Made by a program: the position numbers and the translations under genes. The notes beneath the pieces were generated by a model. The model saw only the letters and a list, made by a program, of their open reading frames with translations, had not been told where the DNA came from and made no database searches. From an uncultured Candidatus Saccharibacteria bacterium (GTDB lineage: Bacteria; Patescibacteriota; Minisyncoccia; Phycocordibacterales; UBA2100): DNA of 39,380 nt. Positions 3,856-37,863 of this stretch are shown here, one piece after another. The stretch lies in assembly GCA_964359415.1 (NCBI GenBank), contig CAYHST010000001.1, forward strand, positions 1 through 39,380. Reading direction: 5' to 3'. Every line of letters starts with the position of its first letter. Positions within the stretch are counted from its first letter, which is position 1.

Positions 3856-3883
3856 ATTATAACGTATTGAATAAGTCTTGCAA
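3856..3883 (-). promoter_or_regulatory. promoter giving a near-leaderless protease mRNA
   Basis: On the minus strand: TTGCAA (3878-3883), a 16-nt spacer, TATAAT (3856-3861), then 9 nt to the ATG at 3846. No SD motif. Confidence 0.4.
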
Positions 3884-3953
3884 GGCTACTTAATGTCGTG
3901 TTCATGCCCGTAGTATCTCATGTTTCTGTAGATTCAAGCTTCTGCCGTATTTC

Positions 3954-4580
3954 TTACCTCTTACCCGCGAGCAATTCTTTTACCTCCGCGTCTTCAACCT
4001 GTTCAAATTCAATATAGTGCGAGCCGACAGCGCCCAAAAACTCTTCGGGAGGTTCCAGGACGACGACCTCATCCGCTTCTTTAAGTAAATTCTCAACCGC
4101 TTCGGCTGACGCGACGGGAGCCGCGATAACGACGCGCGCGGGGTGCTGCGCTCGCACGGCTCGCGCCGCGAGCCGTATCGTAAGACCTGTCGCGATTCCA
4201 TCGTCAACGATAAGCGCGGTTTTGCCGGAAATCGCTATCGGCTTCCGTCCTCCCCTATATACCCTGACGCGCCGCAGAGCTTCATTTTCCTGCCGTTCAA
4301 TTTCGCGCCGAAGCCACTTCTGGTCAATAGATGCCGTCGCGGCGTCATTCAAAATTGTCATACCCTTATCGTCAACCGCGCCAATCGCATATTCGGGCGA
4401 GAGAGGGTGCCCAATTTTCCTGACAACTACGATATCAAGAGAGAGTCCGAGCATTTTTGCTATCTCGCACCCGGTCACGACGCCTCCGCGCGGGAGCGCG
4501 AGTACCACTGCATCTTGGCCGCGATATTTCGCGAGTTTCTCCGCGAGTTGCCTTCCGGCGTCTTCTCTGTCTCTGAACAT
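3954..4580 (-). CDS. phosphoribosyltransferase-family protein
   Basis: 208 aa with the PRPP-binding loop ALIVDDGIATGLT and an N-terminal FRDREDAGRQLA pattern typical of stand-alone PRTase-like proteins. Confidence 0.75.
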   Translation of the reverse strand: MFRDREDAGRQLAEKLAKYRGQDAVVLALPRGGVVTGCEIAKMLGLSLDIVVVRKIGHPLSPEYAIGAVDDKGMTILNDAATASIDQKWLRREIERQENEALRRVRVYRGGRKPIAISGKTALIVDDGIATGLTIRLAARAVRAQHPARVVIAAPVASAEAVENLLKEADEVVVLEPPEEFLGAVGSHYIEFEQVEDAEVKELLAGKR

Positions 4581-8169: not shown

Positions 8170-8240
8170 CTGCCGGACTTGGACTCGAACCAAGATGACG
8201 ACCTCCAGAGGGTCGCATCCTACCGTTAGATGATCCGGCA
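8170..8240 (-). tRNA. tRNA-Gln (anticodon CTG)
   Basis: Hand-folded cloverleaf: acceptor TGCCGGA/TCCGGCA (U1-A72, discriminator G, as in bacterial tRNA-Gln), anticodon stem CGACC/GGTCG, anticodon loop CTCTGGA, T-arm CTTGG-TTCGAGT-CCAAG. CCA is not encoded. Confidence 0.9.
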
Positions 8241-8433
8241 ATGACTAGCTTCTAGCTTCCAGCGGCTAGCTTCCAGCTTGTAGAGAATACTTTAGAAACA
8301 GCCATTATTCAACTGGGCACGCCCCGACACTAAACTTCGGCATCGTTTTGCGAAAGTATTTTGACAGTCTGTCTCATCGCGCAAACAAATATGAGTAACC
8401 GGTTTACTGAAATATAATCTCGGCAAAACATTG

Positions 8434-9510
8434 TTATGTCGAAGTTAGTACGGGGCACGTCCGGCGGTCGCTCTCCAGACGGACAGGAATTTCTTTGACT
8501 GACGCGACTCCGTTTTGGTCAAATGTGACCGAGAGCAATAGCCCGTTTCTCACATCCTCGCTGAAATACTGGTCAAAGATGAAATTGCCGAGCGAGTAAT
8601 AAATTCGCTTACCTTTATACTCTTCCCTCTCTTGCACTACATGCGGATGAGAGCCGATAACAATCTCCGCGCCGGCATCCACGAAACTATGGGCTAATTC
8701 GCGCGAATTAGCCGATGAGGTGGTCGCGTATTCCACTCCCCAGTGCGTGTAAACGATTGGGAGGTACCCGCTGGCGCGGGCATTTTGGATTTGAAATATT
8801 GTCGTTGACGACATACCAACATTCTCAAGTATGTTGGTATGTTCTGCGGGAGCGAATTCGTTGTAGTTTATGAATGCCAGCGAAACGCCATGTACTATAC
8901 TGGTAGAAACTGCCCGCATCAGCTCGCCGCCCGCCTTTGCCCATCCTTCGCATGAAGCTTCAAAGGGGCAGGCGGCGGTTCCTACCTGCGCTAAAGCTTC
9001 TGCCGATATAATCTCTGGCTGGCCGAAATATCCAATGCTCGCGTCTTTTAGAAACCGCGCGGTCAGCTTTGCTCCAACATTTCCAAAATTCAGGATGTGA
9101 TTATTTCCGAGATTCACCATGCGAATATTGTGCGCTTGCAAGAGTGCCGCGGTTGATGGAGGAAACGTAAACGTGAAATTATTCTCGTCGCCCGGAGCCG
9201 ACGACGCGCTGATAGAGGCAGATTCCGTTATCGGCCCTTCAAGATTCGCGACCACTAAATCGGCATCTTTTAGAATCGAGTCAATGCAAGAAAAAACAAA
9301 GTCTTCGCCTTTTTGGTCTATTGCCGCGCGGATTGAACGGTCAAACAGCATATCGCCGCCGAAAATAATTGTCGCGAGTTTCGGCCTCTCCGGCCGCGCA
9401 TAGTTAATTGCCGACTGAATATGCATCGCATATTTATCGGCAAGAACGAAAGAAAGCACCGCCGCGATAAGCGTAAAACCAAGGACAGCTGCTTTTATTA
9501 AACCCGACAT
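8434..9510 (-). CDS. CapA/PGA_cap-family metallophosphatase-like protein (membrane anchored)
   Basis: 358 aa with an N-terminal TM segment and the blocks GGDMLFDR, VANLEGP, NLGNNHILNFG and GSHPHVVQ..YSLGNFIFDQ. Confidence 0.85.
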   Translation of the reverse strand: MSGLIKAAVLGFTLIAAVLSFVLADKYAMHIQSAINYARPERPKLATIIFGGDMLFDRSIRAAIDQKGEDFVFSCIDSILKDADLVVANLEGPITESASISASSAPGDENNFTFTFPPSTAALLQAHNIRMVNLGNNHILNFGNVGAKLTARFLKDASIGYFGQPEIISAEALAQVGTAACPFEASCEGWAKAGGELMRAVSTSIVHGVSLAFINYNEFAPAEHTNILENVGMSSTTIFQIQNARASGYLPIVYTHWGVEYATTSSANSRELAHSFVDAGAEIVIGSHPHVVQEREEYKGKRIYYSLGNFIFDQYFSEDVRNGLLLSVTFDQNGVASVKEIPVRLESDRRTCPVLTST

Positions 9511-11127: not shown

Positions 11128-11880
11128 CTACGTTTTTGAAACTGTCGCGACGAGCGCGCAGTGGTCGCTTAATCCCGAAACCATTTTGGCATCGGAAACC
11201 TTATACGCGGGCGTAGAGAATAACCCGTCAACCATGAAATTAAGATGTCCAGCGCGATGAAAATTGCCGTCAATGGATGCAGTGTAATGCGCCGGCACGT
11301 TGTCCTTATATTTGTCCGCAAGCATCGAGAAGATTTCTCCGCCGCGCGGAGCATTGAAGTCTCCGGTAAATACTATTTCATTATGTGTGCCGAGTGTGCC
11401 AAGAAGTTTCTTCAGATGTATTCGTTGCTCCGAGGTAGTCTCGCCATTTGGAGACCATGTAAAATGCGTCGTCCCTATGTTGAACAAGCTTCCATCTTTC
11501 TCAACCGCTAACGTTACGAGCGCGCAATTCATTGTGTGTCCATTCCCTATCTCTTCAGAAGGACGGTGCTTTGGAATATCATTCGCATTTCCAACATAAT
11601 ATTGAACCTCCTTACGAACAACGCGGAGACAAGAAAATATTGCTTCTCCAACGATTGGATTGCCCTGTTCTTCCATATGCCGAAGCAAGGGCGCAAACAC
11701 ATACTCCGCTTCCCCAAGTATCGAGGCGAATCGCGCGGTATCATTCTCGAGAATTTCCTGAACGCAAACAATTTCTGGCTTTTCTTTATCAAGAAAAGAG
11801 AGGGTAGTACCGAGATGCTTGGCTCGCTCAATGTTGAGCGAAATTAGCTTGATTGACGCCGACTCCCTGGAATCTTTCAT
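11128..11880 (-). CDS. endonuclease/exonuclease/phosphatase (EEP) family protein
   Basis: 250 aa with LISLNIER..PEIVCVQE at the N-terminus, and FTGDFNAP and SDHCALV at the C-terminus. It overlaps pyrG by 4 nt. Confidence 0.8.
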   Translation of the reverse strand: MKDSRESASIKLISLNIERAKHLGTTLSFLDKEKPEIVCVQEILENDTARFASILGEAEYVFAPLLRHMEEQGNPIVGEAIFSCLRVVRKEVQYYVGNANDIPKHRPSEEIGNGHTMNCALVTLAVEKDGSLFNIGTTHFTWSPNGETTSEQRIHLKKLLGTLGTHNEIVFTGDFNAPRGGEIFSMLADKYKDNVPAHYTASIDGNFHRAGHLNFMVDGLFSTPAYKVSDAKMVSGLSDHCALVATVSKT

Positions 11881-13523
11881 TTCGCTTTACCGCGCACAAT
11901 CGCCGCTTTGATGAAAGCATTGAACAACGGATGCGGGGAAAGCGGGCGGGCGCGGAACTCCGGGTGGAATTGAGTTCCGAGGAAGAACGGATGAACGCTC
12001 TTCGGCAATTCCGCTATTTCCATAAGCACCCCGTCCGGCGATTTGCCGGAGAAGACTAGTCCGGCTTTTTCCAACCTTTCGATATATTTCGGATTAACCT
12101 CGTATCGGTGCCTGTGTCTCTCGGAAATCGCTTCCTTGCCGTACGCTTCGTTCGCAATCGTCCCTTCTTTCAATTCGCACGGGTACGCGCCCAAACGCAT
12201 CGTGCCTCCATAATCCTTTTTTGCGAGCTTTTCCACCTGTTCGGGCAAAATAGCGATAACCGGATGCGGCGTTTTTGCGTCAATTTCCGTCGTGTGCGCG
12301 TTTGCCAATCCCGCGACATTTCGCGCGAATTCAACGGTCATCAACTGCATGCCGTAGCAAAGGCCGAAATACGGTATTTTGTTTTCTCGCACATATTGTA
12401 TGGCTTTGATTTTCCCGTCAATCCCGGTTTCGCCGAATCCTCCTGGAACAAGTACGCCGTCGTATTCAGAAAGCTTCTCAAGATTCTCTCCTTTCTCAAA
12501 CTGTTGAGATGAGGTGTAATCAATGACAGGTTTAACCCCCGATGCATAGCAGGAATATTTTATCGCTTCAAGAACGGAAATATAGACATCGGAAAGCACG
12601 AAGTCTCCTGAATCAAAATATTTGCCGACGACTGCGATTTTCAGTTCCTTTCCCCCGTTTTTTGAGCGGAGAACAAAATCTTCCCAATCCTTGAGGTTAG
12701 CCGTTGTGGAGCATTTTTTCATCTTCAGTATCTCGCATAGCTGTGCCGACAAATTGTCTTTTTCAAAGTTGAGCGGTACGTCGTAGATACTCTTAACATC
12801 GGGCGCCGATATGACATGCTCCGGCTTCACGTTGCAGAAGAGAGCGATTTTCTGCCGGCGTTTCTCATCGAGCGCGATTGGAGCGCGCGCGATGATTATG
12901 TCCGCGAAGACGCCGGCGCCATTCAATGTGCGCGCCGCGTACTGCGTCGGTTTTGTTTTCATCTCTCCGATTGAATTTGGCACGGGAAGATAGCTCACCA
13001 AGACAGTGGCAACATCATCGGGGCGCTGGGTTTTCATCATGCGTATAGCCTCGAGGAAAAGAATGTTCTGGTACTCGCCCACCGTCCCGCCGATTTCAAT
13101 CGTCGTGACATCCGCCCCAGCGCCCTCGGCCGCTTTTTCAATGCGAGAAATGACTTCCAGCGGAATATCGGGTACCACCTCAACGCACCGCCCCTCATAT
13201 TCCAAATTGCGCTCGCGCTTGATGACGGAGAGATAGACGGAACCTGTCGTCATGTAATTGATAGAGGGAATATCTTGATTGAGGAAGCGTTCATAATTGC
13301 CCATGTCCTGGTCAGTCTCCATGCCGTCTTCCAAAACAAACACCTCGCCGTGAACCGTCGGATTCATCGTGCCGGCGTCAACGTTTATGTACGGGTCAAT
13401 CTTGAGTGAAGTTACTTTGAGTCCTCGCGCCTTGAGTAAGGTAGCAATTGACGAAGAAGCGATTCCTTTGCCGACGCCGGACATCACTCCGCCCACGACG
13501 AAAATGTATTTATGCCCCGTCAT
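11877..13523 (-). CDS. pyrG: CTP synthase
   Basis: 548 aa with the N-terminal synthetase block KYIFVVGGVMSGVGKGI and the C-terminal GATase blocks GLCYGMQ and HRHRYEVN. Confidence 0.95.
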   Translation of the reverse strand: MTGHKYIFVVGGVMSGVGKGIASSSIATLLKARGLKVTSLKIDPYINVDAGTMNPTVHGEVFVLEDGMETDQDMGNYERFLNQDIPSINYMTTGSVYLSVIKRERNLEYEGRCVEVVPDIPLEVISRIEKAAEGAGADVTTIEIGGTVGEYQNILFLEAIRMMKTQRPDDVATVLVSYLPVPNSIGEMKTKPTQYAARTLNGAGVFADIIIARAPIALDEKRRQKIALFCNVKPEHVISAPDVKSIYDVPLNFEKDNLSAQLCEILKMKKCSTTANLKDWEDFVLRSKNGGKELKIAVVGKYFDSGDFVLSDVYISVLEAIKYSCYASGVKPVIDYTSSQQFEKGENLEKLSEYDGVLVPGGFGETGIDGKIKAIQYVRENKIPYFGLCYGMQLMTVEFARNVAGLANAHTTEIDAKTPHPVIAILPEQVEKLAKKDYGGTMRLGAYPCELKEGTIANEAYGKEAISERHRHRYEVNPKYIERLEKAGLVFSGKSPDGVLMEIAELPKSVHPFFLGTQFHPEFRARPLSPHPLFNAFIKAAIVRGKAK

Positions 13524-13693
13524 AGATATTCTTTACGAATGAAATGAGTAATTAGAGAATCATGACCCCTCCCCAATTTAGTATCCGTTTTCATGTGATA
13601 ATCTTCTCATTTTGTTGAGACCGTCTCAACAGTATATCAAATGTGAGATGCGGTTGTGGGATACTAAATTGGGGAGGGATTAACGAAATTATA
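13524..13693 (-). promoter_or_regulatory. structured leader element A (upstream of pyrG)
   Basis: TATAAT (13688-13693). A perfect 20-bp outer helix pairs 13567-13586 with 13659-13678. The inner palindrome is GTTGAGAC-C-GTCTCAAC (13614-13630). A second hairpin (13528-13560) ends 4 nt before the ATG. Confidence 0.5.
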
Positions 13694-13706
13694 GTCGCTG
13701 TGCTCC

Positions 13707-14636
13707 TTAATTTCGTAAATATCTTCTTACTGCCAAATAGCTTGATAACGCTCCAAGCGCGATGCCGGAAGCCATAACAACAAAGAAAATCGCAGGGAAC
13801 GAACTGGCATAGTATGCGAACGCGTTAAACGTGCCCAGAAAACGCTGCAGGGGCGCGCTTATATACAGCGTGATTGGATAAAGCAATATCAACACGATAA
13901 GACCGGAGACAAACCCGTATAGGATGCCGGCAATCATAAAAGGCCCGCGGACGTACCACCTCCCCGCGCCTACGATATTCATCACTCCGATTTCATCCCG
14001 CGATGTATAAATAGCAAGCCGGATAGTGTTAAAAGCTATCAGAACAGACGCGAGCCCCATAATTATGGCGATTATCGTCCCCAACCGCTTTGACGTATCA
14101 ATGATGCTCGTAAGCCGGTCTATGGCAGTCTTGTTCTGGTAGAAATTAACCTTGTCAATCGCGGAGCCGGCGCTCGTTCCGCTCGATTGTTGTGTCCCCA
14201 GGAATTTCGCTATCGCTTCATATTGGGAAGTCTGCTTGGCTCTCACTTCAAGCGAGGCGCCCAGAGGGTTGTCCTTCAATTCGTCGAGTGCCTGAAGCGT
14301 AAGCTGGTCGTTCTTATGCCTCTCGCGAAATTGCGCGAGCGCGTCGTCGCGGCTCACGAACGAAACAGTGGCAACTTCAGGAAGCGCCTCAAGCATTCTT
14401 TTGACATCCGTAATCTGGGCATCCGTCGCGTTGGTCGTGAAGTACACGTTCACATCAACCTTTTGCGTTAATTGAGCGAGAGTCGCATCAAGCGCCGCGC
14501 CGAAAATCATCAGACCAGAAATTACAAAGAGGGTCAGAGTCATTATTGAAACGGCCGCGAGAGAAACAAATCCGTTGCGGATAAATCCGATAAGCCCGTA
14601 CCTCGCGACTCTTTTTGTGTTTAGCCAGAGGGACAT
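13707..14636 (-). CDS. ftsX: cell-division ABC transporter permease-like protein FtsX
   Basis: 309 aa with an N-terminal TM segment, a periplasmic FtsX-ECD-like region (VDVNVYF..SFVSRDDALAQF) and three C-terminal TM helices. It lies downstream of ftsE. Confidence 0.85.
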   Translation of the reverse strand: MSLWLNTKRVARYGLIGFIRNGFVSLAAVSIMTLTLFVISGLMIFGAALDATLAQLTQKVDVNVYFTTNATDAQITDVKRMLEALPEVATVSFVSRDDALAQFRERHKNDQLTLQALDELKDNPLGASLEVRAKQTSQYEAIAKFLGTQQSSGTSAGSAIDKVNFYQNKTAIDRLTSIIDTSKRLGTIIAIIMGLASVLIAFNTIRLAIYTSRDEIGVMNIVGAGRWYVRGPFMIAGILYGFVSGLIVLILLYPITLYISAPLQRFLGTFNAFAYYASSFPAIFFVVMASGIALGALSSYLAVRRYLRN

Positions 14637-14808
14637 GTTAGATTTTGTTAGTGAGCGAAGCGAGCTTAGAAAATCTTACACCCAGCACCATTTTGACATC
14701 CGTACTCATGTGTCCATTGTACGACGTTGTTGAGACTGTCTCAACGATATCTGGTGGTCGAGAGGAAGTAGCGGGATGCCAAAATGGTGCTGGGTCCTTG
14801 AAATTATA
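14637..14808 (-). promoter_or_regulatory. structured leader element B (between ftsE and ftsX)
   Basis: TATAAT (14803-14808). The outer helix pairs 14680-14701 with 14774-14795 at 21/22 positions; the exception is G-U on the minus-strand RNA. The inner palindrome is GTTGAGAC-T-GTCTCAAC (14729-14745). A second hairpin (14641-14675) ends 4 nt before the ATG. Confidence 0.5.
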
Positions 14809-14827
14809 CTCCCTTTGGTCGTTAATT

Positions 14828-15508
14828 TCATAGGACATACTTCCCCTCCTTGTCATCGCGTATCAACCTCCCCTGGTCCATCGTTACCACGCGCTTGCCG
14901 CCGGCGTCTACGACCGACCTATTGTGTGTCGCGAGCAATACCGTCGTCCCAAGATTGTTTATCTTCTTCAAGATTTCCAAGACATCGTGCGTGTTTATCG
15001 GGTCCAGATTTCCTGTCGGCTCGTCGGCAAGGAGTACGGCCGGCTGATTCACTATGGCGCGCGCTATCGCGACCCTTTGCTGTTCGCCTCCGGAAAGCTC
15101 CCGCGGAAAACTCCACATCTTATCCGCGAGCCCTACCAGCTCGAGTACGTGGGGAACATCGGCCTTTATATCGTCATCGCTCTTGCCGGCCACCTCGAGC
15201 GCGAAGGCGATGTTTTCATATATTGTTTTTGTCGGCAAAAGGCGGAAATCCTGGAAAACCGTCCCTATATTGCGCCTCACTTTCAGAAGCTCCGAATTTG
15301 AGAGTTCGCCTATTGAGCGGGAATCGAAGTACACCGAGCCGGAGGTTGGGAGTACTTCGGCAAACAACATTTTCAGGAGCGTCGTTTTCCCGGCGCCAGA
15401 ATGTCCGACAATGAAAACGAATTCGCCCGCGTCAATGGAAAGAGTAATGTCCTCAACCGCATGCTGGCCGCCGTTGTACACTTTTGTAACTTTGTCGTAG
15501 TGAATCAT
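14828..15508 (-). CDS. ftsE: cell-division ATP-binding protein FtsE
   Basis: Start placed at the internal Met (MIHYDKVTKVY). Walker A GHSGAGKTT, ABC signature LSGGEQQRVAIARA, Walker B LLADEPTGNLD. Confidence 0.9.
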   Translation of the reverse strand: MIHYDKVTKVYNGGQHAVEDITLSIDAGEFVFIVGHSGAGKTTLLKMLFAEVLPTSGSVYFDSRSIGELSNSELLKVRRNIGTVFQDFRLLPTKTIYENIAFALEVAGKSDDDIKADVPHVLELVGLADKMWSFPRELSGGEQQRVAIARAIVNQPAVLLADEPTGNLDPINTHDVLEILKKINNLGTTVLLATHNRSVVDAGGKRVVTMDQGRLIRDDKEGKYVL

Positions 15509-15663
15509 GTGCCGGTTTTGTCTACGAGTGCAGCGAGTAGGTACAAAACCGAGTACCCAGCACCTTTTCAAGCAAATTAGATTTCATAATCATTGAGGTC
15601 AATTCTGGCAATTGTATCACGAAGATAACCATCGCAAAAAAGGTGCTGGGTTAGGCATTTCTA
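15509..15663 (-). promoter_or_regulatory. structured leader element C (upstream of ftsE)
   Basis: A -10-like TAGAAA (15658-15663). The outer helix pairs 15555-15568 with 15638-15651 (14 bp) and shares the ACCCAGCACC arm with element B. The inner palindrome is ATTGAGGTCAAT (15592-15603). A second hairpin (15512-15551) ends 3 nt before the ATG. Confidence 0.45.
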
Positions 15664-15667
15664 ACTC

Positions 15668-15683
15668 TCCGCCAACCGGCGGA
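15668..15683. terminator. small GC hairpin TCCGCC-AACC-GGCGGA just after the prfB stop
   Basis: 6-bp stem with a 4-nt loop. The same hairpin recurs at 16632-16647. No U-tract. Confidence 0.35.
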
Positions 15684-15685
15684 TC

Positions 15686-16603
15686 TTAAGAACCGCCTAA
15701 ATCTTTTTCGGCGTCTACGAACGATTGGATGCCGCCGTCCAGCACTTTGTCCGTATCGCGCTCTTCATGCTCGGTGCGGTGGTCTTTCACGAGCTTGTAT
15801 GGGTGCAGAACGTATGAGCGAATCTGGCTTCCCCACTCAATTTTCGTTGTCGCGGCAACGGAAAAACCCCGCGATTCCTTTGTCTGCGCTTCCTCGCGCA
15901 TCTTAAAAAGTTTTCCGCGAATCATTTCCAGAGCTTTCTCGCGATTCTGTGCTTGACTGCGCTCCGAGGTAACTTGGACGGAAATACCTGTCGGCTTGTG
16001 CGTCATTCGCACCGCTGTGTCGCGCTTGTTTACATTCTGCCCGCCGGGGCCGCCGGAGCGAGCGACAGAAACTTCAATTTCCGCGTCCGGAATGTGCATT
16101 TCGCCCGCGTCCGGCAACTTGGGAAGCACTTCAACCATTGAAAAGCTTGTCTGCCGTTTCCCCGCCGCATTGAACGGCGACATGCGCACAAGCCGATGTA
16201 CTCCCGCTTCGTTTTTTAGTGTTCCGTACGGGCCCGCCGTAGCCTTGACGGAGGCGGGAGCGCCACTACCCAAGACCTCAAAAGAAACGCTTCTGTATCC
16301 GCCGACTGAATTTTCATTTGCCGAAAGAAGCGACGTGCGCCAACCCCTGCTAGCGACATACTTGCTGTACATGCTGAAAAGTATCCTTGAGAAATCCTCA
16401 GCATCGTCCCCGCCAGCGCCGGAGATTATTGAAATAATCGCGTCACTTTTATCGTGTGAACCTCCTCCCGCGAGCTTCTGCTTAAGCTCCTGATACTCCT
16501 TGAGCGCGCCTCTGGCCTTTTCTTTATCAGCCCAAAAATCAGGGCTAGCCATCGCCGTTTCAATATCCACTATCCGTTCCTTAATTTCTTCTTTCGATTG
16601 CAT
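15686..16603 (-). CDS. prfB: peptide chain release factor 2 (shortened domain 1, no frameshift site)
   Basis: 305 aa with the SPF tripeptide ([15 protein letters not shown]), GGQ (GPGGQNVNK) and [11 protein letters not shown]. It is a single uninterrupted ORF. Confidence 0.9.
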
Positions 16604-18002: not shown

Positions 18003-18089
18003 AAGCAAAACTGAATATATCATTTTTGCGACAAACGTGCTTCTTTCGCATATATCTTCAAGAATTGCACCAACTCTCACAGAACACAC

Positions 18090-18116
18090 CAACATTCTCA
18101 AGTTTGTAAGTATGTT
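18090..18116. repeat. 27-nt palindromic repeat S1
   Basis: ccaacattctcaagtttgtaagtatgt, matching S2 (18423-18449) at 25/27 positions. It sits immediately 3' of the ArsR-family gene. Confidence 0.9.
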
Positions 18117-18401: not shown

Positions 18402-18422
18402 ACGTTCATTATATAACTCATT

Positions 18423-18449
18423 CCTACATTCTCAAGTTTGTAAGGATGT
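18423..18449. repeat. 27-nt palindromic repeat S2, overlapping the arsR-family promoter
   Basis: cctacattctcaagtttgtaaggatgt. On the minus strand it contains TTGAGA (18430-18435), followed by a 16-nt spacer, TATAAT (18408-18413) and 6 nt to the ATG at 18401. It also directly follows the ribD stop. Confidence 0.85.
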
Positions 18450-18451
18450 GT

Positions 18452-19584: not shown

Positions 19585-20907
19585 CTAAACGTTTTTCAAC
19601 TTATGGCCGAGCCTCTTTTTCTTCGCAGAGAGATACGCGGCGTTTATTTCATTATGATAGATTTCTAATGGCACACGCTCCGCAATTTTTATCCCAAAAG
19701 AAGAAAGCTGTTTCTCTTTCTCCGGATTATTGGTCAGCAGTTTTATTTTCTTCGCGCCCAAATCTTTTAATATAAGCGCGGAAACTTCGTAATCCCGCGC
19801 GTCTGCGGAGAATCCAAGCGCGTGGTTCGCGTCTACCGTGTCATACCCTTCGTCCTGAAGCGCGTAAGCTTTTATCTTATTCCCAAGCCCGATGCCGCGC
19901 CCCTCTTGATTCAAATACACGATGATTCCGCTCCCTGCCTTTTTTATTATTTCCATGCTTGCCTGAAGTTGTTCTCTGCAATCGCACCGAAGAGAACCGA
20001 ACGTGTCCCCTGTAAGGCATTGCGAGTGAACCCTGACGAGTACCGGCATTTTTTTAATGTCGCCGCCTGCCTGCGCCGCGGGCGCGGCAGGCAGGTGTAT
20101 GAGCGCGACATGTTCCAGGTCGTCAAAAGTAGAAGTGTAGACGATGACGCGAAACGTTCCGTACCGCGTGGGAAGCGTGGACTCCGAAAATCTCGCGACT
20201 CCGTGCGGAGAACGCAGCGCGGGGAGAGGATGCGCGCGCAGGTATCGCACTACGTCTTTTATCGCGATAATCTTTATCTTGAGTTCTCGCGAGAAGCGCG
20301 CGATTTCGGCGCCTCTTGCCATGCGGCCATTTTTCCCGACTATCTCGCACAAGACGCCCGCTGGGTGCCTGCCCGCAAGACGGGCCAAATCCACCGCCGC
20401 CTCGGTATGCCCTTCCCGCTTCAATAATCCTCCGGCTCGCGCGACGAGACCGAACACATGGCCCGGCTTTACGATGTCCTCCGCGCGCGATTTCGGGTTT
20501 GCGAGTATGCGGATTGTTTTCGCCCTGTCGTACGCGGAAACTCCGGTCGTAATGCCTTTTTTCGCGTTTACCGAGACAGTAAAATTCACGCCCGTTTTTT
20601 CGGTATTCTGGCTCAAAGGAACCATCGCGGAAAGCCGGAGATTGTGCGCTTGCAGGGGAGTAATCGCGGTGCAGACAATGCCGCCGCCGTACTTCAACAT
20701 GATGTTGATGTTTTCTCCGGTCGCGGCATCTGCTGGAATATATAAATCAGCCTCGTTCTCGCGCTCCGGACTATCAACGACAATAAGCATCTTGCCCTTT
20801 TTAATCTCCTCTATCGCTTCCGGCACTGTGCAGAAGTTTTTCGCGGCTTTTTTCACCCCGTTAGAGGCAGGGCGCGTTCGTGTGGATTCTTTAACAATTG
20901 TTCTCAT
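19585..20907 (-). CDS. ribBA: bifunctional 3,4-dihydroxy-2-butanone-4-phosphate synthase / GTP cyclohydrolase II
   Basis: 440 aa with the DHBP synthase block VVDSPERENEADL and the GCH-II blocks VRVHSQCLTGD..CDC and NQEGRGIGL. Confidence 0.95.
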   Translation of the reverse strand: MRTIVKESTRTRPASNGVKKAAKNFCTVPEAIEEIKKGKMLIVVDSPERENEADLYIPADAATGENINIMLKYGGGIVCTAITPLQAHNLRLSAMVPLSQNTEKTGVNFTVSVNAKKGITTGVSAYDRAKTIRILANPKSRAEDIVKPGHVFGLVARAGGLLKREGHTEAAVDLARLAGRHPAGVLCEIVGKNGRMARGAEIARFSRELKIKIIAIKDVVRYLRAHPLPALRSPHGVARFSESTLPTRYGTFRVIVYTSTFDDLEHVALIHLPAAPAAQAGGDIKKMPVLVRVHSQCLTGDTFGSLRCDCREQLQASMEIIKKAGSGIIVYLNQEGRGIGLGNKIKAYALQDEGYDTVDANHALGFSADARDYEVSALILKDLGAKKIKLLTNNPEKEKQLSSFGIKIAERVPLEIYHNEINAAYLSAKKKRLGHKLKNV

Positions 20908-20974
20908 AACAATTTACTAATTATTTAAAAGCTATTCCCTGCTAGTTTCGTGCGACCGCGGCCTCTAACGGGGT

Positions 20975-22060: not shown

Positions 22061-22243
22061 GGTTTCCTTCTTTCATCCCGACTATACGGTCGGTCGCGGA
22101 ATCTAACCGCAGTCGTGCCCTGATAAATACCAGAACTCGCGGACTCGCTTGCCCTCCATAGCCTTGGCGAAGGAGGACGGGCTTTACCGCCGATTGGGAT
22201 TTTGCTCGTACCTCACGAACATCACCCTACCCCGAAGGAAGTT
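22061..22243 (-). ncRNA. FMN riboswitch (RFN element) aptamer
   Basis: Conserved RFN blocks on the minus strand: UUCGGGGUAGGGUGA, AAUCCCAAUCGGCGGUAAAGCCCG and GAUUCCGCGACCGUAUAGUCGGGAUGAAAGAAGG. P1 pairs CUUCCUUC with GAAGGAA. It lies directly upstream of the rib operon. Confidence 0.85.
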
Positions 22244-22272: not shown

Positions 22273-22301
22273 CATTCACGCACCTCTACACACAAAACAT
22301 T

Positions 22302-22326
22302 CCAACATTCTCAAGAATGTTAGAAT
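22302..22326. repeat. palindromic repeat S3
   Basis: ccaacattctcaagaatgttagaat matches S1 at 21/25 positions. Its core AACATTCT-CA-AGAATGTT is an 8-2-8 inverted repeat. It sits just 3' of the aminotransferase stop (22335). Confidence 0.8.
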
Positions 22327-22334
22327 ATTTTCAA

Positions 22335-23432: not shown

Positions 23433-23503
23433 TAGGGCTATCATAGTTGTCGTTACGAAGAAAGTAAATGTGTCGTGAAGTCGTAGTAAAATAGACTGCA
23501 TTT

Positions 23504-23537
23504 CCTATGCTAGTGTTTTGCAAAACACTAGCATAGG
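23504..23537. repeat. perfect 34-nt palindrome
   Basis: cctatgctagtgttttg|caaaacactagcatagg (17+17). It lies between murC and the aminotransferase, next to S4. Confidence 0.9.
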
Positions 23538-23553
23538 AGAATCCGCATCTGCT

Positions 23554-23593
23554 AAAAACATCCTTACATACTTGAGTATGTAAGGATGTTTTT
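23554..23593. terminator. palindromic repeat S4 / bidirectional terminator-like hairpin after murC
   Basis: aaaaacatccttacatact-tg-agtatgtaaggatgttttt, with 19-nt arms flanked by an A5 run on one side and a T5 run on the other. The core is related to S1-S3 and it overlaps the murC stop codon. Confidence 0.65.
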
Positions 23594-24872
23594 ATTGCTC
23601 AATTATCTGCTCGGCGACTTTATAGATGTCCCCTGCTCCCATCGTGATGATTACGGCATCGTCTTTTTCTTTTAGCAGAGCGTCGCGGATTTCATCAAAT
23701 GAATCAAGGGCGCGGGCATTTCCTCCATTCTTGACGACCGCTTCAGCGAGCGCGCGGTTTGTTACGCCTTGAATCGGCTCCTCGCGCGCCGGGTAAATGG
23801 GCGCGACAATTACTTCGTCTGCATGTGCCAACGCCTCGCCAAAATCTTTCATCAAATCCCGCGTCCGCGAATAGAGGTGCGCGTGAAATGCGACGACGAT
23901 TTTCTTGCCGGGGAATTTCTCACGAACTGCATGCAGAGTCTTTTCAATCGCTGTCGGATGGTGCGCATAGTCATCGTAGACTTGCGCCCCTTTAGGTGTT
24001 TCGCCTTTGTATTCAAACCGGCGCCAAGAACCCTTGAAATTCTTGAGCGCATCGTCCGCAACAGACTCGATAACGTCGGGAAATGCCGCGCGCGCGGCGG
24101 CTTTCGCGGCGCGGGCGTTTTCACGGTTAAATTCGCCAAGCAATTTGAGCGCGGGTACTGTTTCTTTCGTGTAATCAACCACGCGCGCTGTTACGCCTTT
24201 TAAGACAATGCCCATATTCTCGCCGTTCGGAGCCGCAACGACAACTCCATGTTTTGGAATAGCGCGCGCGGCCTTTCCGAACGATTCAAGCATTTTGTCG
24301 AGCGTCGGGAAATAATCCGTGTGGTCCCACTCGGCGTTGGTAATCACAAGTATTTCAGGGAGAAGTTTCAGCATGTGGTCTTTGTATTCGCACGCCTCAA
24401 CGACAAGAAGGTCATCACGACCTTCCAGATAATTAGAACCGAAGTCTGAAACTATGGAACCGACGATAGCGCTCGGATTCTTTCCCGCGTGTTTTAATAT
24501 CGCAGCCAACATTCCCGTCGTCGTGGTTTTTCCGTGAGTCCCCGTCACAGCAAGAGTCCTCATATTTTTCGAAACCTGGCCTAGCGCCTCAAAGTAGGAC
24601 ATCTCGGGGATTTTCATTTCTTTCGCGCGCGTTCGCTCCGGATTATCCGGCCACACGGCATCGCTGTATACAAGAAGCTCCGTATCCGGTGGTATGAGAC
24701 AGCCATCATGGCCGATTGAAACAGAAATGCCTTTTTCTGCGAGCAATTTCGTCGTGGGCGATTCTTCTCTATCCGACCCGCTAACCTGCTTGCCTTGATG
24801 CACAAGAAGCTGTGCCAAAGCCGACATCCCTATACCTCCAACTCCAACCATGTAAATATTCTGTGGAATCAT
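23592..24872 (-). CDS. murC: UDP-N-acetylmuramate--L-alanine ligase
   Basis: 426 aa with VGVGGIGMSALA, the Mur ligase P-loop GTHGKTTTT, and DDYAHHP. Confidence 0.95.
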   Translation of the reverse strand: MIPQNIYMVGVGGIGMSALAQLLVHQGKQVSGSDREESPTTKLLAEKGISVSIGHDGCLIPPDTELLVYSDAVWPDNPERTRAKEMKIPEMSYFEALGQVSKNMRTLAVTGTHGKTTTTGMLAAILKHAGKNPSAIVGSIVSDFGSNYLEGRDDLLVVEACEYKDHMLKLLPEILVITNAEWDHTDYFPTLDKMLESFGKAARAIPKHGVVVAAPNGENMGIVLKGVTARVVDYTKETVPALKLLGEFNRENARAAKAAARAAFPDVIESVADDALKNFKGSWRRFEYKGETPKGAQVYDDYAHHPTAIEKTLHAVREKFPGKKIVVAFHAHLYSRTRDLMKDFGEALAHADEVIVAPIYPAREEPIQGVTNRALAEAVVKNGGNARALDSFDEIRDALLKEKDDAVIITMGAGDIYKVAEQIIEQ

Positions 24873-24884
24873 AATTCACTTCGA

Positions 24885-25025
24885 GCATACCCGGTTAGTA
24901 CAATGTGGCATAGTTTCTGTCGCTACACAATTCACCGCACCAACATTTTTCTGTTGGATAAGCAGATTGATTTTGTCGTAAGAAACCGCAACCAAGACAA
25001 TGCCACATTGTCCTACCGGGCATAC
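24885..25025. repeat. MITE-like inverted-repeat element D (long hairpin upstream of murC)
   Basis: The arms are ccggttagtacaatgtggcat (24891-24911) and atgccacattgtcctaccgg (25000-25019). They are flanked by exact 6-bp direct repeats gcatac (24885-24890 and 25020-25025). The inner hairpin is ccaaca-tttttc-tgttgg. Confidence 0.5.
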
Positions 25026-27848: not shown

Positions 27849-27892
27849 AGTTACGCATTGTACCACCGGCCATGATTATGTGGAAAACGACG

Positions 27893-27920
27893 TTGCATTC
27901 GCTTATGCCGCATGTATAAT
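27893..27920 (+). promoter_or_regulatory. promoter of the cobalamin-riboswitch operon
   Basis: TTGCAT (27893-27898), a 16-nt spacer, TATAAT (27915-27920). Confidence 0.55.
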
Positions 27921-27934
27921 TCCGTTCCTGCTTT

Positions 27935-28154
27935 CTGTGGAAGTTGGGTTCCCCATTCTTCGTCAAGACTTCGAAGGGCAAGGGATTCCCGCACTGTGCC
28001 GCAACGGTAAAACGCTGGAAACTGGATGCCGGATACTGGAAACTGGAAACCAAAGTTTTGTGTTTTCTAGCTCCTAGTTATCTAGCTTCCTTGCTCTAGA
28101 GTGAGTCCGGTCTTCAGAAAGCGGATATCCCGAGCAGGAGACCGTGTACCGCAG
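27935..28154 (+). ncRNA. cobalamin (B12) riboswitch, probable
   Basis: Core-like blocks are AAGGGCAAGGGAUUCCCGCACUGUGCCGCAACGGUAAAAC and GCCGGAUACUGGAAACUGGAAACC, with a B12-box-like GAGCAGGAGACCGUG (28132-28146). The candidate P1 pairs CUGUGG (27935-27940) with CCGCAG (28149-28154). The downstream genes encode DUF4430 proteins. Confidence 0.6.
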
Positions 28155-35635: not shown

Positions 35636-36340
35636 CTAAGTTTTTGGCAGGTATTTGTATCCTTCTGGCACAACGAGGCTCTTTTGATTTTCCCCGTCCC
35701 ACGCAATCTCGCCGCGGACAACCATGTTGGTTATCTTCGGCTGCCACTCGTGTTCTGCCGCGCGAACTGTCTTTTCTATATCATCGGCCGTTACTCCCTT
35801 TTGTAGCGGTATGCGATATTCGAAAAAAGCAGGGCCGCGGTCCAGTTCGTCGGTAACAAAGTGCATGGTAAATCCTAATTCGGTTATTTCTCCTGCATCT
35901 AACGCGGTTTTTACTGCTTCGTGAACGTGTTGTCCGTACATTCCGTGTCCGCCGAAGCGACCATCAAGCTGTGAAAGAAGCGCGGGGTGGATGTTGAACG
36001 TACGTTGCGGGTCCAGTCCTTTTACCTGCTTCAACCACCCGGAAAGAGCAGTCCAATCTATTCTGGTGTTTTGCAAAACACTGGAATAGTGCTCGGCATC
36101 ATATGGCCCGGGGAAAAATATAAATGGAACCCCGAGACGGTCCGCACGCTCGCGCACACCGCCATGCTCGTGGTTGGAAACGACAGCAACGACATCCGCA
36201 TCCAATTCGCTATGCTGGAGCGAATTGTCCCGAGCGGAGGCGAGGGATAGTCCATTTCGGCTAGCCGCGACAAGGTTCTCAAAACCGGAACCGCCGCCAT
36301 CTTTAGTTCCAGAAGCGAAGATTATGAGTTTTGGCTTCAT
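35636..36340 (-). CDS. purN: phosphoribosylglycinamide formyltransferase-like (formyl_trans_N family)
   Basis: 234 aa with IIFASGTKDGGGSGFENL, NIHPALL, and FTMHFVTDELDRGP (the catalytic Asp region). Confidence 0.8.
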   Translation of the reverse strand: MKPKLIIFASGTKDGGGSGFENLVAASRNGLSLASARDNSLQHSELDADVVAVVSNHEHGGVRERADRLGVPFIFFPGPYDAEHYSSVLQNTRIDWTALSGWLKQVKGLDPQRTFNIHPALLSQLDGRFGGHGMYGQHVHEAVKTALDAGEITELGFTMHFVTDELDRGPAFFEYRIPLQKGVTADDIEKTVRAAEHEWQPKITNMVVRGEIAWDGENQKSLVVPEGYKYLPKT

Positions 36341-36343
36341 GAG

Positions 36344-37642
36344 CTATTCCACCGCCTCCACAGACGCCCCGAGTTCTTGTAACCGTTCGTGCAGACGCTC
36401 GTACCCGCGGTTTATCGGGTACACGTTGCGAAGGATTGATTCCCCTTCCGCCGCAAGCATGCCTATCAAAATAATCGTCGCAGGGCGAAGCGCGGGCGGA
36501 GCTTCAATATCCGCCGCGTGGAGCGGTGTCGGGCCATCTATGAACACGCGGTGCGGGTCGGCAAGAAGCATATTCGCTCCGAGCTTTTTCATTTCCATGT
36601 AGTAAATCGCGCGGTTCTCGTAGACCCAATCGTGGATGAGCGTCCTCCCTTCTGCCTGCGTTGCGACAGGCACAAAGAACGGCAGGTTGTCTATGTTGAT
36701 GCCCGGATACGGGCGGGGCGCGATTTTCTCGGGCGGAGCAGTGAGCTTTGAGGGAAACATTGTTACATCAGCGAGAACCGTCCGGCCGTTGTCGGCGAGG
36801 TACTTCGCACCGTATTTGTACTTCTGACTCATTTGCCCGAGCGTTACGAGTTCCAATTCAAGAAAATCCATCGGACAGCGCTTTATCGTAAGTTCCGAGC
36901 CGGTCGTCGCCGCAAGTGAGATGAAGAACATGGATTCAATCGGGTCCTCGCTCGGATAAATGACCACATCTCTATCAATCTCATCAACACCGTAAACCGT
37001 GAGCGTGGAAGTTCCGATGCCCTCTACTTTCACTCCGCACACTTCCAGAAACGTGCAGAGGTCTTGCACCATGTAATTGGCGCTTGCGTATTTGATGATT
37101 GTTTTCCCGGGAATCTTCGCCGCCGCCATAAGGACGCTCTCCGTCCCCGTATCGCTGGATTCGTACATTGCAATTTCTCCGGATGTCTTCTCTTTTGAAT
37201 AGACCTTGTACATGCCGTCCGAGCCTTTCTGTATCTGAATTCCCAAAGCGCCGAGCGCCTGTATGTGAGGCATCATTGTCCTCCCGCCCAAATTGCATCC
37301 GCCGGGGAGCGGAAGTTCAAACGTTTCAAACAAGTGCGCGAGAGGTGCAGTAAAAAGCACGGTGCTTCTGGTCTTCCCCGCGGCTACTCTGTCCATCTTT
37401 TCAGGAGTAAGTATTTTCGAAGGATGTATTATTACGTCGCCATTACTCCACCAAACTTCAGCGCCAATACTTTTCAATACCTCTATTATGCGGTTAGCCT
37501 CTTCTATTTTCGGTACACGCTTTATCGTCGTCGTCCCGCGATTCAAGAGCGAAGCGGCGAGCAAGGCGACCGTTGCATTCTTTGAGATGTTCGTGGTAAC
37601 CGAACCCGAAAGCTTTTTACCGCCTGTGACTTTGTAGTTCAT
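36344..37642 (-). CDS. murA: UDP-N-acetylglucosamine 1-carboxyvinyltransferase
   Basis: 432 aa in the EPSP/MurA fold, with G(G)KKLSGSV, KNATVALLAASLL, and the active-site loop LPGGCNLGGR, which contains the catalytic Cys. Confidence 0.95.
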   Translation of the reverse strand: MNYKVTGGKKLSGSVTTNISKNATVALLAASLLNRGTTTIKRVPKIEEANRIIEVLKSIGAEVWWSNGDVIIHPSKILTPEKMDRVAAGKTRSTVLFTAPLAHLFETFELPLPGGCNLGGRTMMPHIQALGALGIQIQKGSDGMYKVYSKEKTSGEIAMYESSDTGTESVLMAAAKIPGKTIIKYASANYMVQDLCTFLEVCGVKVEGIGTSTLTVYGVDEIDRDVVIYPSEDPIESMFFISLAATTGSELTIKRCPMDFLELELVTLGQMSQKYKYGAKYLADNGRTVLADVTMFPSKLTAPPEKIAPRPYPGINIDNLPFFVPVATQAEGRTLIHDWVYENRAIYYMEMKKLGANMLLADPHRVFIDGPTPLHAADIEAPPALRPATIILIGMLAAEGESILRNVYPINRGYERLHERLQELGASVEAVE

Positions 37643-37760
37643 CCCGTTAGAAGTAGGAAGCTCGCGCTTCCGACTTGAAAATTAGGGTTTGAATATATGC
37701 GACCGTGAGAAACATATGTGGAGTATAAACTACATCTGAACTTCCGCGACTTCTAACGGG
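37643..37760 (-). promoter_or_regulatory. long-hairpin leader element E abutting the murA start codon
   Basis: A perfect 12-bp outer helix pairs cccgttagaagt (37643-37654) with acttctaacggg (37749-37760). The inner hairpin is ggaagc-tcgc-gcttcc. CATAAT on the minus strand lies 12 nt upstream. The 3' arm ends at position -1 of the murA ATG. Confidence 0.45.
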
Positions 37761-37863
37761 ATTCACTCGGATATTATGCCCTACTTCGCCCTGACGGGCT
37801 ACGAAGGGCTACTTCGCTGGGGTGTCTGCACTTCGAAGCCCTCCTTTCTGGAGAGCGAAGTAG

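Follow-up and report, generated by a model that had tools for sequence, protein, structure and literature searches.

Hairpin-forming spacers between prfB, ftsE, ftsX and pyrG in a Patescibacteria contig as probable remnants of an inverted-repeat-bounded GIY-YIG cassette

The genes for release factor 2 (prfB), FtsE, FtsX and CTP synthase (pyrG) follow one another on the minus strand of contig CAYHST010000001.1 (assembly GCA_964359415.1), and each of the three junctions between them holds a spacer with a long hairpin helix. The question raised by this locus is whether these spacers are leaders that evolved for the genes they precede or insertions that came from elsewhere. The stretch analysed, referred to as the window, is 39,380 nucleotides (nt) long; the ftsX|pyrG spacer is called element A, the ftsE|ftsX spacer element B and the prfB|ftsE spacer element C. 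It is proposed that A, B and C are probably derivatives, without an open reading frame (ORF) and similar to miniature inverted-repeat transposable elements (MITEs), of a modular inverted-repeat-bounded GIY-YIG cassette widespread in Parcubacteria/Paceibacteria. At the level of sequence, A-C can be shown to be paralogues, each a copy of a modular cassette that was inserted and is palindromic throughout, and full-length members of the family to carry a predicted bare GIY-YIG gene between the same arms, also at the ftsX|pyrG junction.

The loci used for comparison (L followed by a number, such as L170) are relatives of the window or metagenome stretches. The FtsX of the window is encoded as an identical protein on Hainich groundwater contigs, and its relatives come from Candidatus Kaiserbacteria and other Parcubacteria metagenome-assembled genomes. 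A metagenome scan with the query TTAANGAGCGRAGCGANTATAAT matched at least 120 stretches, whose copies were ascertained by the motif alone; a set of loci seeded with ftsX, selected without use of the motif, served as a second sample. Helices in the motif-seeded copies were located via complementarity and judged by their occurrence against shuffled and offset controls, since counting covariation in them would be circular. The genes and the parts of the three elements, all on the minus strand, are the following.

15686-16603, minus: release factor 2 (prfB), by Pfam
14828-15505, minus: FtsE, by Pfam
13707-14636, minus: FtsX, by Pfam
11877-13523, minus: CTP synthase (pyrG), by Pfam
15652-15683, minus: C, upstream module, GC hairpin TCCGCC-GGTT-GGCGGA (15668-15683), then GAGTTAGAAAT (-10-like TAGAAA at 15658-15663)
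15555-15651, minus: C, outer helix, arms 15638-15651 and 15555-15568, 14/14 paired, interior 69 nt
15592-15619, minus: C, interior features, TGATACAAT at 15611-15619 (extended -10-like) and palindrome ATTGACCTCAAT at 15592-15603
15522-15593, minus: C, mini-ORF of 23 codons, stop 16 nt ahead of the ftsE ATG
15514-15550, minus: C, hairpin 2, with the 12-mer CTCGCTGCACTC at 15526-15537
14803-14830, minus: B, upstream module, ftsE stop codon TGA, AATTAAC, degenerate motif GACCAAAGGGA (14810-14820) and TATAAT (14803-14808)
14680-14795, minus: B, outer helix, arms 14774-14795 and 14680-14701, 21/22 paired, interior 72 nt
14716-14745, minus: B, interior features, palindrome at 14729-14745 and promoter-like TTGAGA-17-TACAAT at 14744-14716
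14638-14709, minus: B, mini-ORF of 23 codons, ATG 6 nt past TACAAT, stop arranged as TAA-C-ATG (ftsX)
14640-14676, minus: B, hairpin 2, with the 12-mer CTCGCTTCGCTC at 14653-14664
13679-13720, minus: A, upstream hairpin (P-hairpin), arms 13708-13720 and 13679-13691, a 13-nt inverted repeat of 92%, with the degenerate GGAGCACAGCGAC motif as its loop and TATAAT at 13688-13693
13567-13678, minus: A, outer helix, arms 13659-13678 and 13567-13586, 20/20 paired, interior 72 nt
13614-13630, minus: A, interior palindrome GTTGAGACGGTCTCAAC
13520-13594, minus: A, mini-ORF of 24 codons spanning the 3' arm and hairpin 2, its TGA overlapping the pyrG ATG (ATGA)
13525-13561, minus: A, hairpin 2 (inverted P-hairpin), with the 12-mer CTCATTTCATTC at 13537-13548

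The earlier note, which had been made from the window sequence alone, described one layout for all three spacers, namely a -10-like box, a long helix starting 6-9 nt on and a second hairpin before the ATG. This layout was found on the minus strand with every position as described, the gap from box to helix being 9 nt in A, 7 nt in B and 6 nt in C. An inverted-repeat search returned the outer-helix pairing listed above together with its one exception, a G-U on the minus strand that is the sole position in the B helix not paired by Watson-Crick rules. From helix to ATG the predicted RNA folds reach -52.1, -58.2 and -49.8 kcal/mol for A, B and C (z-scores -6.0, -6.2 and -5.0), and none of 200 shuffles was as stable. 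The paralogy of the three units, also put forward in the note, is supported. Where 0.06 occurrences would be expected in the window, the palindrome GTTGAGAC-N-GTCTCAAC has exactly two, one each in A and B; ACCCAGCACC is common to the outer helices of B and C. The same outer helices of A and B that had been called unrelated are identical at 14/20 positions; all six differences are compensated, so that the reported keeping of pairing under sequence change holds here, as it does across the listed helices of other loci. An inserted element would be expected to show such compensation in its inverted repeats; by itself it is no proof of an RNA function. No Rfam family matched A-C at gathering thresholds, in line with the statement that no named RNA family was recognised, and a permissive Rfam search of A-C gave only far sub-threshold plant microRNA-precursor models, which are typical of any long hairpin. 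The idea of tRNA-like interiors, suggested by lengths of 59-81 nt that approach the length of a tRNA, was rejected, as ARAGORN placed tRNAs only in tRNA-Gly units elsewhere and none in A-C.

The second hairpin reveals how the unit is built. Its pyrimidine-rich 12-mer had been read as a free-standing apical motif and instead repeats, in inverted form, the motif that relatives carry on the 5' side of the -10 box: the 12-mer of B is the exact reverse complement of the GAGCGAAGCGA motif region (GAGCGAAGCGAG) beside the upstream TATAAT in relatives. Hairpin 2 is, on this evidence, an inverted copy of the upstream P-hairpin, and the unit of ~180 nt therefore forms one nested palindrome. An nhmmer profile of 205 positions, built from 14 copies, matches its own reverse complement with E = 2e-11 over profile positions 20-192. 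In order, the cassette consists of these parts.

Part 1: P-hairpin, xAAAATTAA-N-GAGCGAAGCGA-N-TATAATTTTx, with pairing flanks
Parts 2-3: ~7 nt, then an inverted-repeat arm starting ACCC
Parts 4-5: the interior, then the partner arm terminating GGGT
Parts 6-7: the inverted P-hairpin copy (hairpin 2), then a few nt and the host ATG

Upstream of the -10 box, relatives carry (A)ATTAA-N-GAGCGAAGCGA-N-TATAAT. The flanks outside the AAA/TTT core of the P-hairpin covary: among 95 distinct listed copies, pairing at positions 4-6 reaches 82%, 87% and 60%, compared with 44%, 33% and 39% for permuted partners. In A-C the unit is short, non-coding and bounded by terminal inverted repeats, which comprise the arms of 14-22 nt and the inverted outer hairpins. 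Individual parts recur among relatives. The 5' stem strand of the A P-hairpin takes in the final ftsX codons and the stop codon, relatives read TTAAGGAGCG[AG]AGCGACTATAAT at that position, and the A arm class ATCCCTCCCC is seen again in L006 and L126. The B block GTTGAGACNGTCTCAACAANGTCGTACAAT is kept in L005, L007, L031 and L108. At the position of the C upstream module L007 has GAGCGAAGCGAGTTAGAAAT, and the TG[AG]TACAAT of the C interior is kept in L005, L006 and L007. The stem strands of C hairpin 2 are swapped in L034, L005 and L006, from CGGTTTTGT/ACAAAACCG to CGAAAAACA/TGTTTTTCG, with the loop retained.

The arms also link the elements to a nuclease gene. Full-length cassettes enclose an ORF for a single-domain GIY-YIG protein of 82-91 amino acids (aa; Pfam PF01541, E = 1e-8 to 1e-16), and PF01541 is its only above-threshold catalytic-domain match, other Pfam matches (T5orf172/MUG113) being weak. 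By Pfam these proteins consist of a catalytic domain of ~80 aa only, with no separate DNA-binding domain; no NCBIfam model lay above its cut-offs, and a PDB search gave the UPF0213 protein 1ZG2 as the sole and weak relative (E = 6e-4). Such ORFs stand between same-class arms in L107, L106, L074 (twice), L170, L199, L200, L201 and L202, and hairpin-forming, dispersed repeats lie on both sides of the genes of L106, L107, L074 (twice), L170, L194-196 and L199-202. The arms are as follows.

L107: arms ACCCAGCACCTTGTTTGTTTA / TAAACAAATAAGGTGCTGGGT, the class of elements B and C
L106: arms of the CCCCGTTAAAT class
L074, two copies: arms ACCCCAGCACTAACTTTGG, with an internal TTGCTATAAT-6 nt-ATG
L200, L201, L202: arms …CCAGCCCTCTA or …CCCGCCCTCTA with TAGAGGGC…, internal promoter spacing as in L074

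Arms overlap the start and stop codons of the nuclease gene in L106 and L200-L202, and in L074 and L200-L202 they flank GIY-YIG genes that have no P-hairpin. L170 shows the complete order at the junction occupied by A in the window: ftsX is followed by the P-hairpin, the arm ACCCAGCCCTCTCCAAA, the GIY-YIG ORF, an arm, the inverted hairpin and pyrG, and the ORF runs through the 3' arm and the hairpin to end in an ATGA overlap with pyrG. The same design is found in L199 between pheS and the next gene. In an alignment, the 3' ~60 nt of the A mini-ORF and the 3' ends of the ORFs in L170 and L199 match column by column, the ATGA overlap included, and tblastn detected GIY-YIG relics that the helices of L155 and L139 enclose (E = 3e-4). 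GIY-YIG genes occupy the junctions ftsX|pyrG (L170), pheS|next gene (L199), ABC ATPase|permease (L194) and mraY|ftsW (L196), sporadically among relatives. Near-identical genes for an 89-aa GIY-YIG protein with another inverted repeat, CCTGTTCACACGAAATGACC / GGTCATTTCGTGTGACAGG, are present at L194:10001-10270, L195:3001-3270 and L196:3001-3270; the insertion point is in each case precisely a host start codon, TATG stands at either end, and one of these genes is in the complete Kaiserbacteria genome CP066682.1. Small GIY-YIG genes are also found by tRNA genes (L058:1451-1699, L197:3001-3246 and L032:696-959), with the 5' part of the tRNA duplicated across them, an arrangement that is apparently a signature of site-specific tRNA-gene insertion.

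The window itself holds further members of the family outside the four-gene run.

1-121, minus: truncated GIY-YIG gene at the window edge, N-terminal part (tblastn, translation, PF01541 E = 1.9e-8)
20855-20974, minus: ORF-less element ACCCCGTTAGAGGC...GCCTCTAACGGGGT between ribH and ribBA, arms 14/14 paired, interior 92 nt
37636-37767, minus: ORF-less element ATCCCGTTAGAAGT...ACTTCTAACGGGAT, arms of 19 nt (89%), interior 94 nt, 3' arm abutting the murA ATG

The start region of the truncated gene, ATGTATCCCGTTAGAGAT, shares the CCCGTTAGAG arm sequence with both of these elements, and the arm class CCCCGTTA of the 20855-20974 element is also found around or beside GIY-YIG genes (L106, L142). The arrangement at 37636-37767 recurs upstream of pyrG in L027, with ATG at both ends. 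An FMN riboswitch at 22061-22243 (Rfam, 79.8 bits) precedes the rib operon; lying inside that operon behind the riboswitch, the helix at 20855-20974 is probably transcribed by read-through.

The junctions of relatives, filled or empty, point in the same direction. The prfB-ftsE-ftsX-pyrG order is retained in ~60 species represented by related metagenome-assembled genomes, where spacer lengths are bimodal, most being 1-35 nt and a minority 100-270 nt. The ftsX-pyrG spacer measures 183 nt in the window and in L006, 157 nt in L005, 16 nt in L034 and 12 nt in L007; in these closest relatives FtsX is 88-91% identical, and L034 and L007 have no element A. As these genes stand 1-20 nt apart in most related Kaiserbacteria and element A is absent even from close relatives, A, B and C are insertions into junctions that had been 1-20 nt long, and the comparison shows junctions that are compact and evidently turn over fast. 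The old stop-codon context (…GTTCGTGATATAAC…) persists 3' of the insert in L005, L115 and L178, and TA or TTA stands at both edges of the A-type insert in L115 and L178. About 17 of the 120 listed motif-seeded matches fall at prfB-ftsE-ftsX-pyrG, in lineages whose FtsX is 39-89% identical to that of the window, and the locus looks like a recurrent cassette hotspot. Matches there are those of L081, L100, L102, L104, L105, L108, L115, L130, L149, L157, L159, L170, L171, L177, L178 and L192.

A second type of palindromic cassette with tandem-heptad arms (AGCTTCT... with ...CTAGAAG) and a TGTTATAAT-type box in its loop occupies window positions 8219-8433 and 27867-28100 and spacers of L034, L006, L008 (L008:2291-2422), L009, L014 and L049. 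Its C/A-rich, G-poor arm adjoins the ATG, and at the ftsE|ftsX junction it replaces the P-hairpin cassette in close relatives (L034, L006, L008 and L009). A further palindromic insert of 78 nt, TGCCAAAGGCATATCGTGTCT...AGACACGATA, is nested in the B-type copies of L005:3709-4009, L007:3709-4009 and L023 (~3880-3960), between GGGTGTA and AGATTTT with TA on either side; its length is a multiple of three and it has no stop in the mini-ORF frame.

Mini-ORFs and promoter-like signals accompany the helices. In B the gap of 6 nt from TTGAGA-17-TACAAT to the mini-ORF ATG equals the spacing of the putative leaderless nuclease promoters in L074 and L200. The B mini-ORF is open in L031 and L108 and stays open in L005 through the nested 78-nt insert, which adds 26 codons. 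A promoter scan of spacer B gave two sites, one of them ATGAAA-17-TATAAT at 14831-14803. An ORF terminates at the host ATG in 42% of 26 full cassettes, a sample that contains related copies, compared with 18% in shuffles. A 72-codon open frame (14638-14856, minus strand) crosses all of spacer B from a beginning within the 3' end of ftsE, and spacer C holds an ATG-started frame of 36 codons whose stop is shared with the C mini-ORF; these frames may be due to chance or be remnants of an earlier nuclease ORF.

We propose the following route to A-C. The interior would correspond to the nuclease gene of full-length relatives, shrunk in A, B and C to ~70 nt. The small GIY-YIG nuclease may act on hairpin or inverted-repeat DNA, by analogy with the Ssn nucleases of Neisseria and their flanking repeats, and such action would help the cassette to be copied by homing or recombination between the conserved genes that flank it; decay of the nuclease gene would then leave the inverted-repeat shell. 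The upstream P-hairpin would supply a sigma-70-type -10 box directed at the downstream gene, and transcription starting at the base of the helix would yield a transcript whose 5' end is a fully paired stem-loop. The nuclease ORF, or a leftover mini-ORF of 23-24 codons, would cross the 3' arm and hairpin 2 and end on or beside the host start codon, where such an end (ATGA in A, TAA-C-ATG in B) may couple the translation of genes that lack a Shine-Dalgarno sequence. The compensatory changes would then come from the upkeep of the element's inverted repeats.

The module is spread far beyond the cell-division genes. As judged by translations and a tRNA scan, the motif precedes L10-, L20-, L24-, EF-G-, GroEL- and pilin-like genes, tRNA genes, and ftsE, ftsX and pyrG, which contradicts the earlier suggestion of an element for division and envelope genes. 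A helix begins 4-12 nt past TATAAT in 66 of 120 distinct listed copies, compared with 3-5/120 in shuffled sequence and 10/120 at a +150-nt offset. The distance has its mode at 7 nt (34 cases), bearing out the fixed spacing of box and helix noted before; 33 of the 66 helices begin ACCC, and the first base is usually A. Helix positions 5-12 each show three or four Watson-Crick pair types with 91-100% pairing among the listed motif-seeded copies. Loops of ORF-less copies cluster at 59-81 nt, and their interiors are unrelated in sequence except for a Kaiserbacteria A/B cluster. L107 carries a full cassette in almost every junction of one co-directional gene run. Among 98 distinct listed copies, 69 have only a co-oriented gene start and 6 only an inverted start-proximal one, and in the ftsX-seeded set the upstream end usually keeps TATAAT while the inverted end reads TTAGAA or worse. 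With helices oriented by the downstream gene, G-U exceeds A-C mismatches 21:9, a weak tally that ignores kinship among copies; together with the orientation of the motif it agrees with the sense-strand RNA that had been deduced from the single G-U of B.

Several arrangements at tRNA genes stand beside this distribution. In four units a tRNA-Gly(CCC) lies inside the helix after a P-hairpin (L076:1209-1281, L100:1638-1710, L111:1640-1713 and L132:1190-1261), its 5' leader pairing with the 3' trailer over ~16 base pairs like a processing stalk. In L084:1236-1300, L086:6499-6560, L116 and L128 a P-hairpin lies just past the tRNA 3' end, which forms its outer stem together with an inverted copy, and a GTAGGATG-hairpin-GCCACA unit resembling repetitive extragenic palindromic (REP) elements follows. 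The GAGCGAAGCGA motif also forms a hairpin loop, with no TATAAT, right after tRNA genes in L018, L019 (minus strand, near 5023), L032 and L069, where the tRNA 3' end and an inverted copy of it again form the stem.

A number of observations weigh against derivation from a GIY-YIG cassette. No clean target-site duplication was found at A, B or C, where the whole stop-to-ATG spacer is replaced, and tblastn found no GIY-YIG similarity in the A/B/C interiors; interiors of clustered length and unrelated sequence are not obviously predicted by random deletion. We know of no transposase or homing enzyme that is a single-domain GIY-YIG protein of 85 aa. The promoter-scan count is not above that of shuffles. 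A mini-ORF is lacking in about half of the full cassettes, so translation coupling cannot be general; a general upstream-ORF coupling rule was dropped for this reason and coupling kept as a local feature. Finally, some helices have loops of only 3-4 nt, and the helix can be missing after a P-hairpin, as in L095 at the rplJ site (compare L075 and L085) and at tRNA genes, which means that the promoter hairpin may be a host signal with which nuclease cassettes merely associate.

These last two observations keep alive a host-first account, the main rival, which we consider unlikely on balance yet worth holding in view. According to it the P-hairpin is an ordinary strong host promoter, the ACCC...GGGT helix a 5'-terminal mRNA stabiliser, the GIY-YIG genes secondary invaders of the loop, and A-C host modules gained at junctions. 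It gains from solitary P-hairpins that follow terminators and precede rplJ-like, tRNA and pilin-like genes with neither helix nor inverted copy, from downstream genes that by their translations are often highly expressed (L10, L20, L24, EF-G, GroEL-like), from the 69:6 orientation bias and the sense-strand excess of G-U, and from a helix that begins with A at the expected +1, 7 nt past TATAAT. However, a promoter needs neither covarying flanking stems nor an inverted copy of itself against the start codon, same-class arms flank nuclease genes that lack any P-hairpin and overlap nuclease start and stop codons, and the 3' end of element A is collinear with that of a nuclease ORF. Derivation from the cassette is preferred.

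A third account regards A-C as dedicated cis-acting RNA leaders (a 5' stabiliser, processing stem or protein-binding operator) evolved for ftsE, ftsX and pyrG in the lack of Shine-Dalgarno sequences; we judge it improbable. Strong non-random folds, the compensated A/B differences, the hairpin-2 stem strands that flip around a kept loop, and the share of listed matches at prfB-ftsE-ftsX-pyrG across widely diverged FtsX lineages would suit such leaders. That the spacers are conserved leaders is contradicted by the compact spacers of most relatives and by close relatives that differ in the presence and even the type of cassette, L034 and L007 lacking A altogether. The same module stands ahead of many unrelated genes, the palindrome is complete so that the profile matches both strands, and the A helix of L006 has two uncompensated mismatches. 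A dedicated division-gene leader is the reading least consistent with the comparative data. The opposite prospect raised in that note, a simple MITE family with flanking target-site duplications, fared better in one part than in the other: palindromic dispersed insertions were found and a clean duplication at A-C was not, and the full palindromes, with full-length relatives bearing a GIY-YIG gene between the arms, largely bear out a MITE-like nature. That A-C are classical MITEs moved in trans by a DDE transposase (such as an IS630/Tc1-like one with TA duplication), the GIY-YIG genes being unrelated passengers, is highly improbable, for although palindromic architecture, dispersed copies, the TA on both sides of the 78-nt insert in the B copies of L005, L007 and L023, and the TA or TTA at both edges of the A-type inserts of L115 and L178 would fit, none of the copies in the inspected loci has a transposase gene beside it, target-site duplications are missing from A, B and C, and the discrete arm classes match the flanks of nuclease genes. 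No Y1_Tnp gene was seen either in the few loci with Pfam listings, where no systematic search was made.

A bolder form of the cassette derivation, which we put forward as doubtful, would make the family a new insertion-sequence-like class of Parcubacteria element, whose sole protein is a bare GIY-YIG nuclease of ~85 aa and which inserts from stop to start between essential genes, donates a promoter and couples translation, its ORF-less derivatives now working as promoters and leaders of housekeeping operons. Patescibacteria have, to our knowledge, tiny, tightly packed genomes with almost no experimentally mapped promoters or leaders, and literature searches on the motif, on MITEs of the Candidate Phyla Radiation and on Patescibacteria promoters found nothing relevant. 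If the derivation is correct, it would provide an uncultured radiation with a candidate promoter motif and a recurrent design of 5' untranslated region, both testable with public metatranscriptomes, and cell-division and nucleotide-synthesis operons would have been repeatedly split and rewired by small palindromic inserts. The pairing of a tiny GIY-YIG nuclease with hairpin repeats, known from Ssn, would extend to a new phylum with other repeats, another layout and plainer mobile-element behaviour, and such nucleases would be of interest as tools for cutting single-stranded DNA. The locus also carries a warning that perfect compensatory changes in intergenic helices can stem from inserted inverted repeats rather than from regulatory RNA.

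Other intergenic repeats in the window were recorded. Near-perfect palindromes ACATCCTTACA-N-ACT(T/C)(G/A)AG(T/A)ATGTAAGGATGT lie at 23553-23594, 8811-8842, ~22290-22331, ~18080-18116 and ~18417-18451 and may serve as terminators or operator-like sites. At 23503-23538 and 36058-36089 there are two related palindromes, both perfect and centred on GTGTTTTGCAAAACAC (TCCTATGCTAGTGTTTTGC/GCAAAACACTAGCATAGGA and CTATTCTGGTGTTTTGC/GCAAAACACTGGAATAG). An inverted repeat at 24891-25020, 18 nt upstream of the murC ATG, has 33-nt arms (CCCGG...CCGGG) that are 76% complementary and 64 nt apart; it may belong to the same inverted-repeat superfamily.

Several known systems share features with the cassette. 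In the ompA 5' untranslated region and in Bacillus 5' stabilisers, a 5'-terminal stem protects the mRNA from 5'-end-dependent decay; the helix described here would likewise start where transcription does and leave no 5' nucleotide unpaired, but the start site is a predicted one and the helix is the inverted repeat of an insert, mirrored on the other strand. Correia elements of Neisseria are promoter-carrying intergenic MITEs of ~100-180 nt with -10-like boxes that are transcribed to long hairpins. Both families are intergenic palindromic insertions with terminal inverted repeats and -10-like boxes that are present or absent among relatives; they have no sequence relationship, A-C show no TA duplication, the coding partner here is a GIY-YIG gene with no DDE transposase known, and the nested hairpin modules are peculiar to the cassette. 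Free-standing GIY-YIG homing genes (T4 seg and mob) also sit sporadically between conserved genes under their own promoters and are expected to decay after fixation. The homing enzymes known to us have a separate DNA-binding domain and exceed 200 aa, whereas the genes described here encode bare catalytic domains of ~85 aa and are bounded by inverted repeats. REP elements, bacterial interspersed mosaic elements (BIME) and REPIN are hairpin units with a RAYT (HUH Y1) transposase, and they resemble the cassette in a conserved motif with variable stems, occurrence singly or in inverted pairs, a frequent position after stop codons and a repeat-flanked nuclease gene. They differ in that the enzyme here is GIY-YIG and not HUH Y1, and in the TATAAT box and the strong orientation towards downstream genes. 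REP/REPIN-RAYT elements are also discussed in the report on the Ssn family (Chenal et al., Nat Commun 2025, PMC11893778), which is the closest described system. Ssn is a single-domain GIY-YIG nuclease of 94 aa in Neisseria with hairpin repeats (NTS/SRM) on both sides; these repeats exist in hundreds of dispersed copies, next to which the enzyme cuts single-stranded DNA, and the authors likened the architecture to an insertion sequence (PMC11893778). The SRM motif HGTCWYN(0-2)YYVSBRHN(0-5)WNVSBRGN(0-2)RNCYNB was absent from the window and from the surroundings (up to 400 nt) of 13 GIY-YIG genes, and over 1.39 Mb it gave 11 matches compared with 2-9 in shuffles. What the two systems have in common is a GIY-YIG protein of small size and one domain only (94 aa in Neisseria and 82-91 aa in the cassettes), flanking hairpin inverted repeats and the dispersal of the same repeats near genes. 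In the cassettes described here, by contrast, the arms pair across the gene, an extra TATAAT hairpin module flanks the arms, the units lie exactly between a stop and the next start codon in Patescibacteria hosts, and ORF-less derivatives of ~110-180 nt are common.

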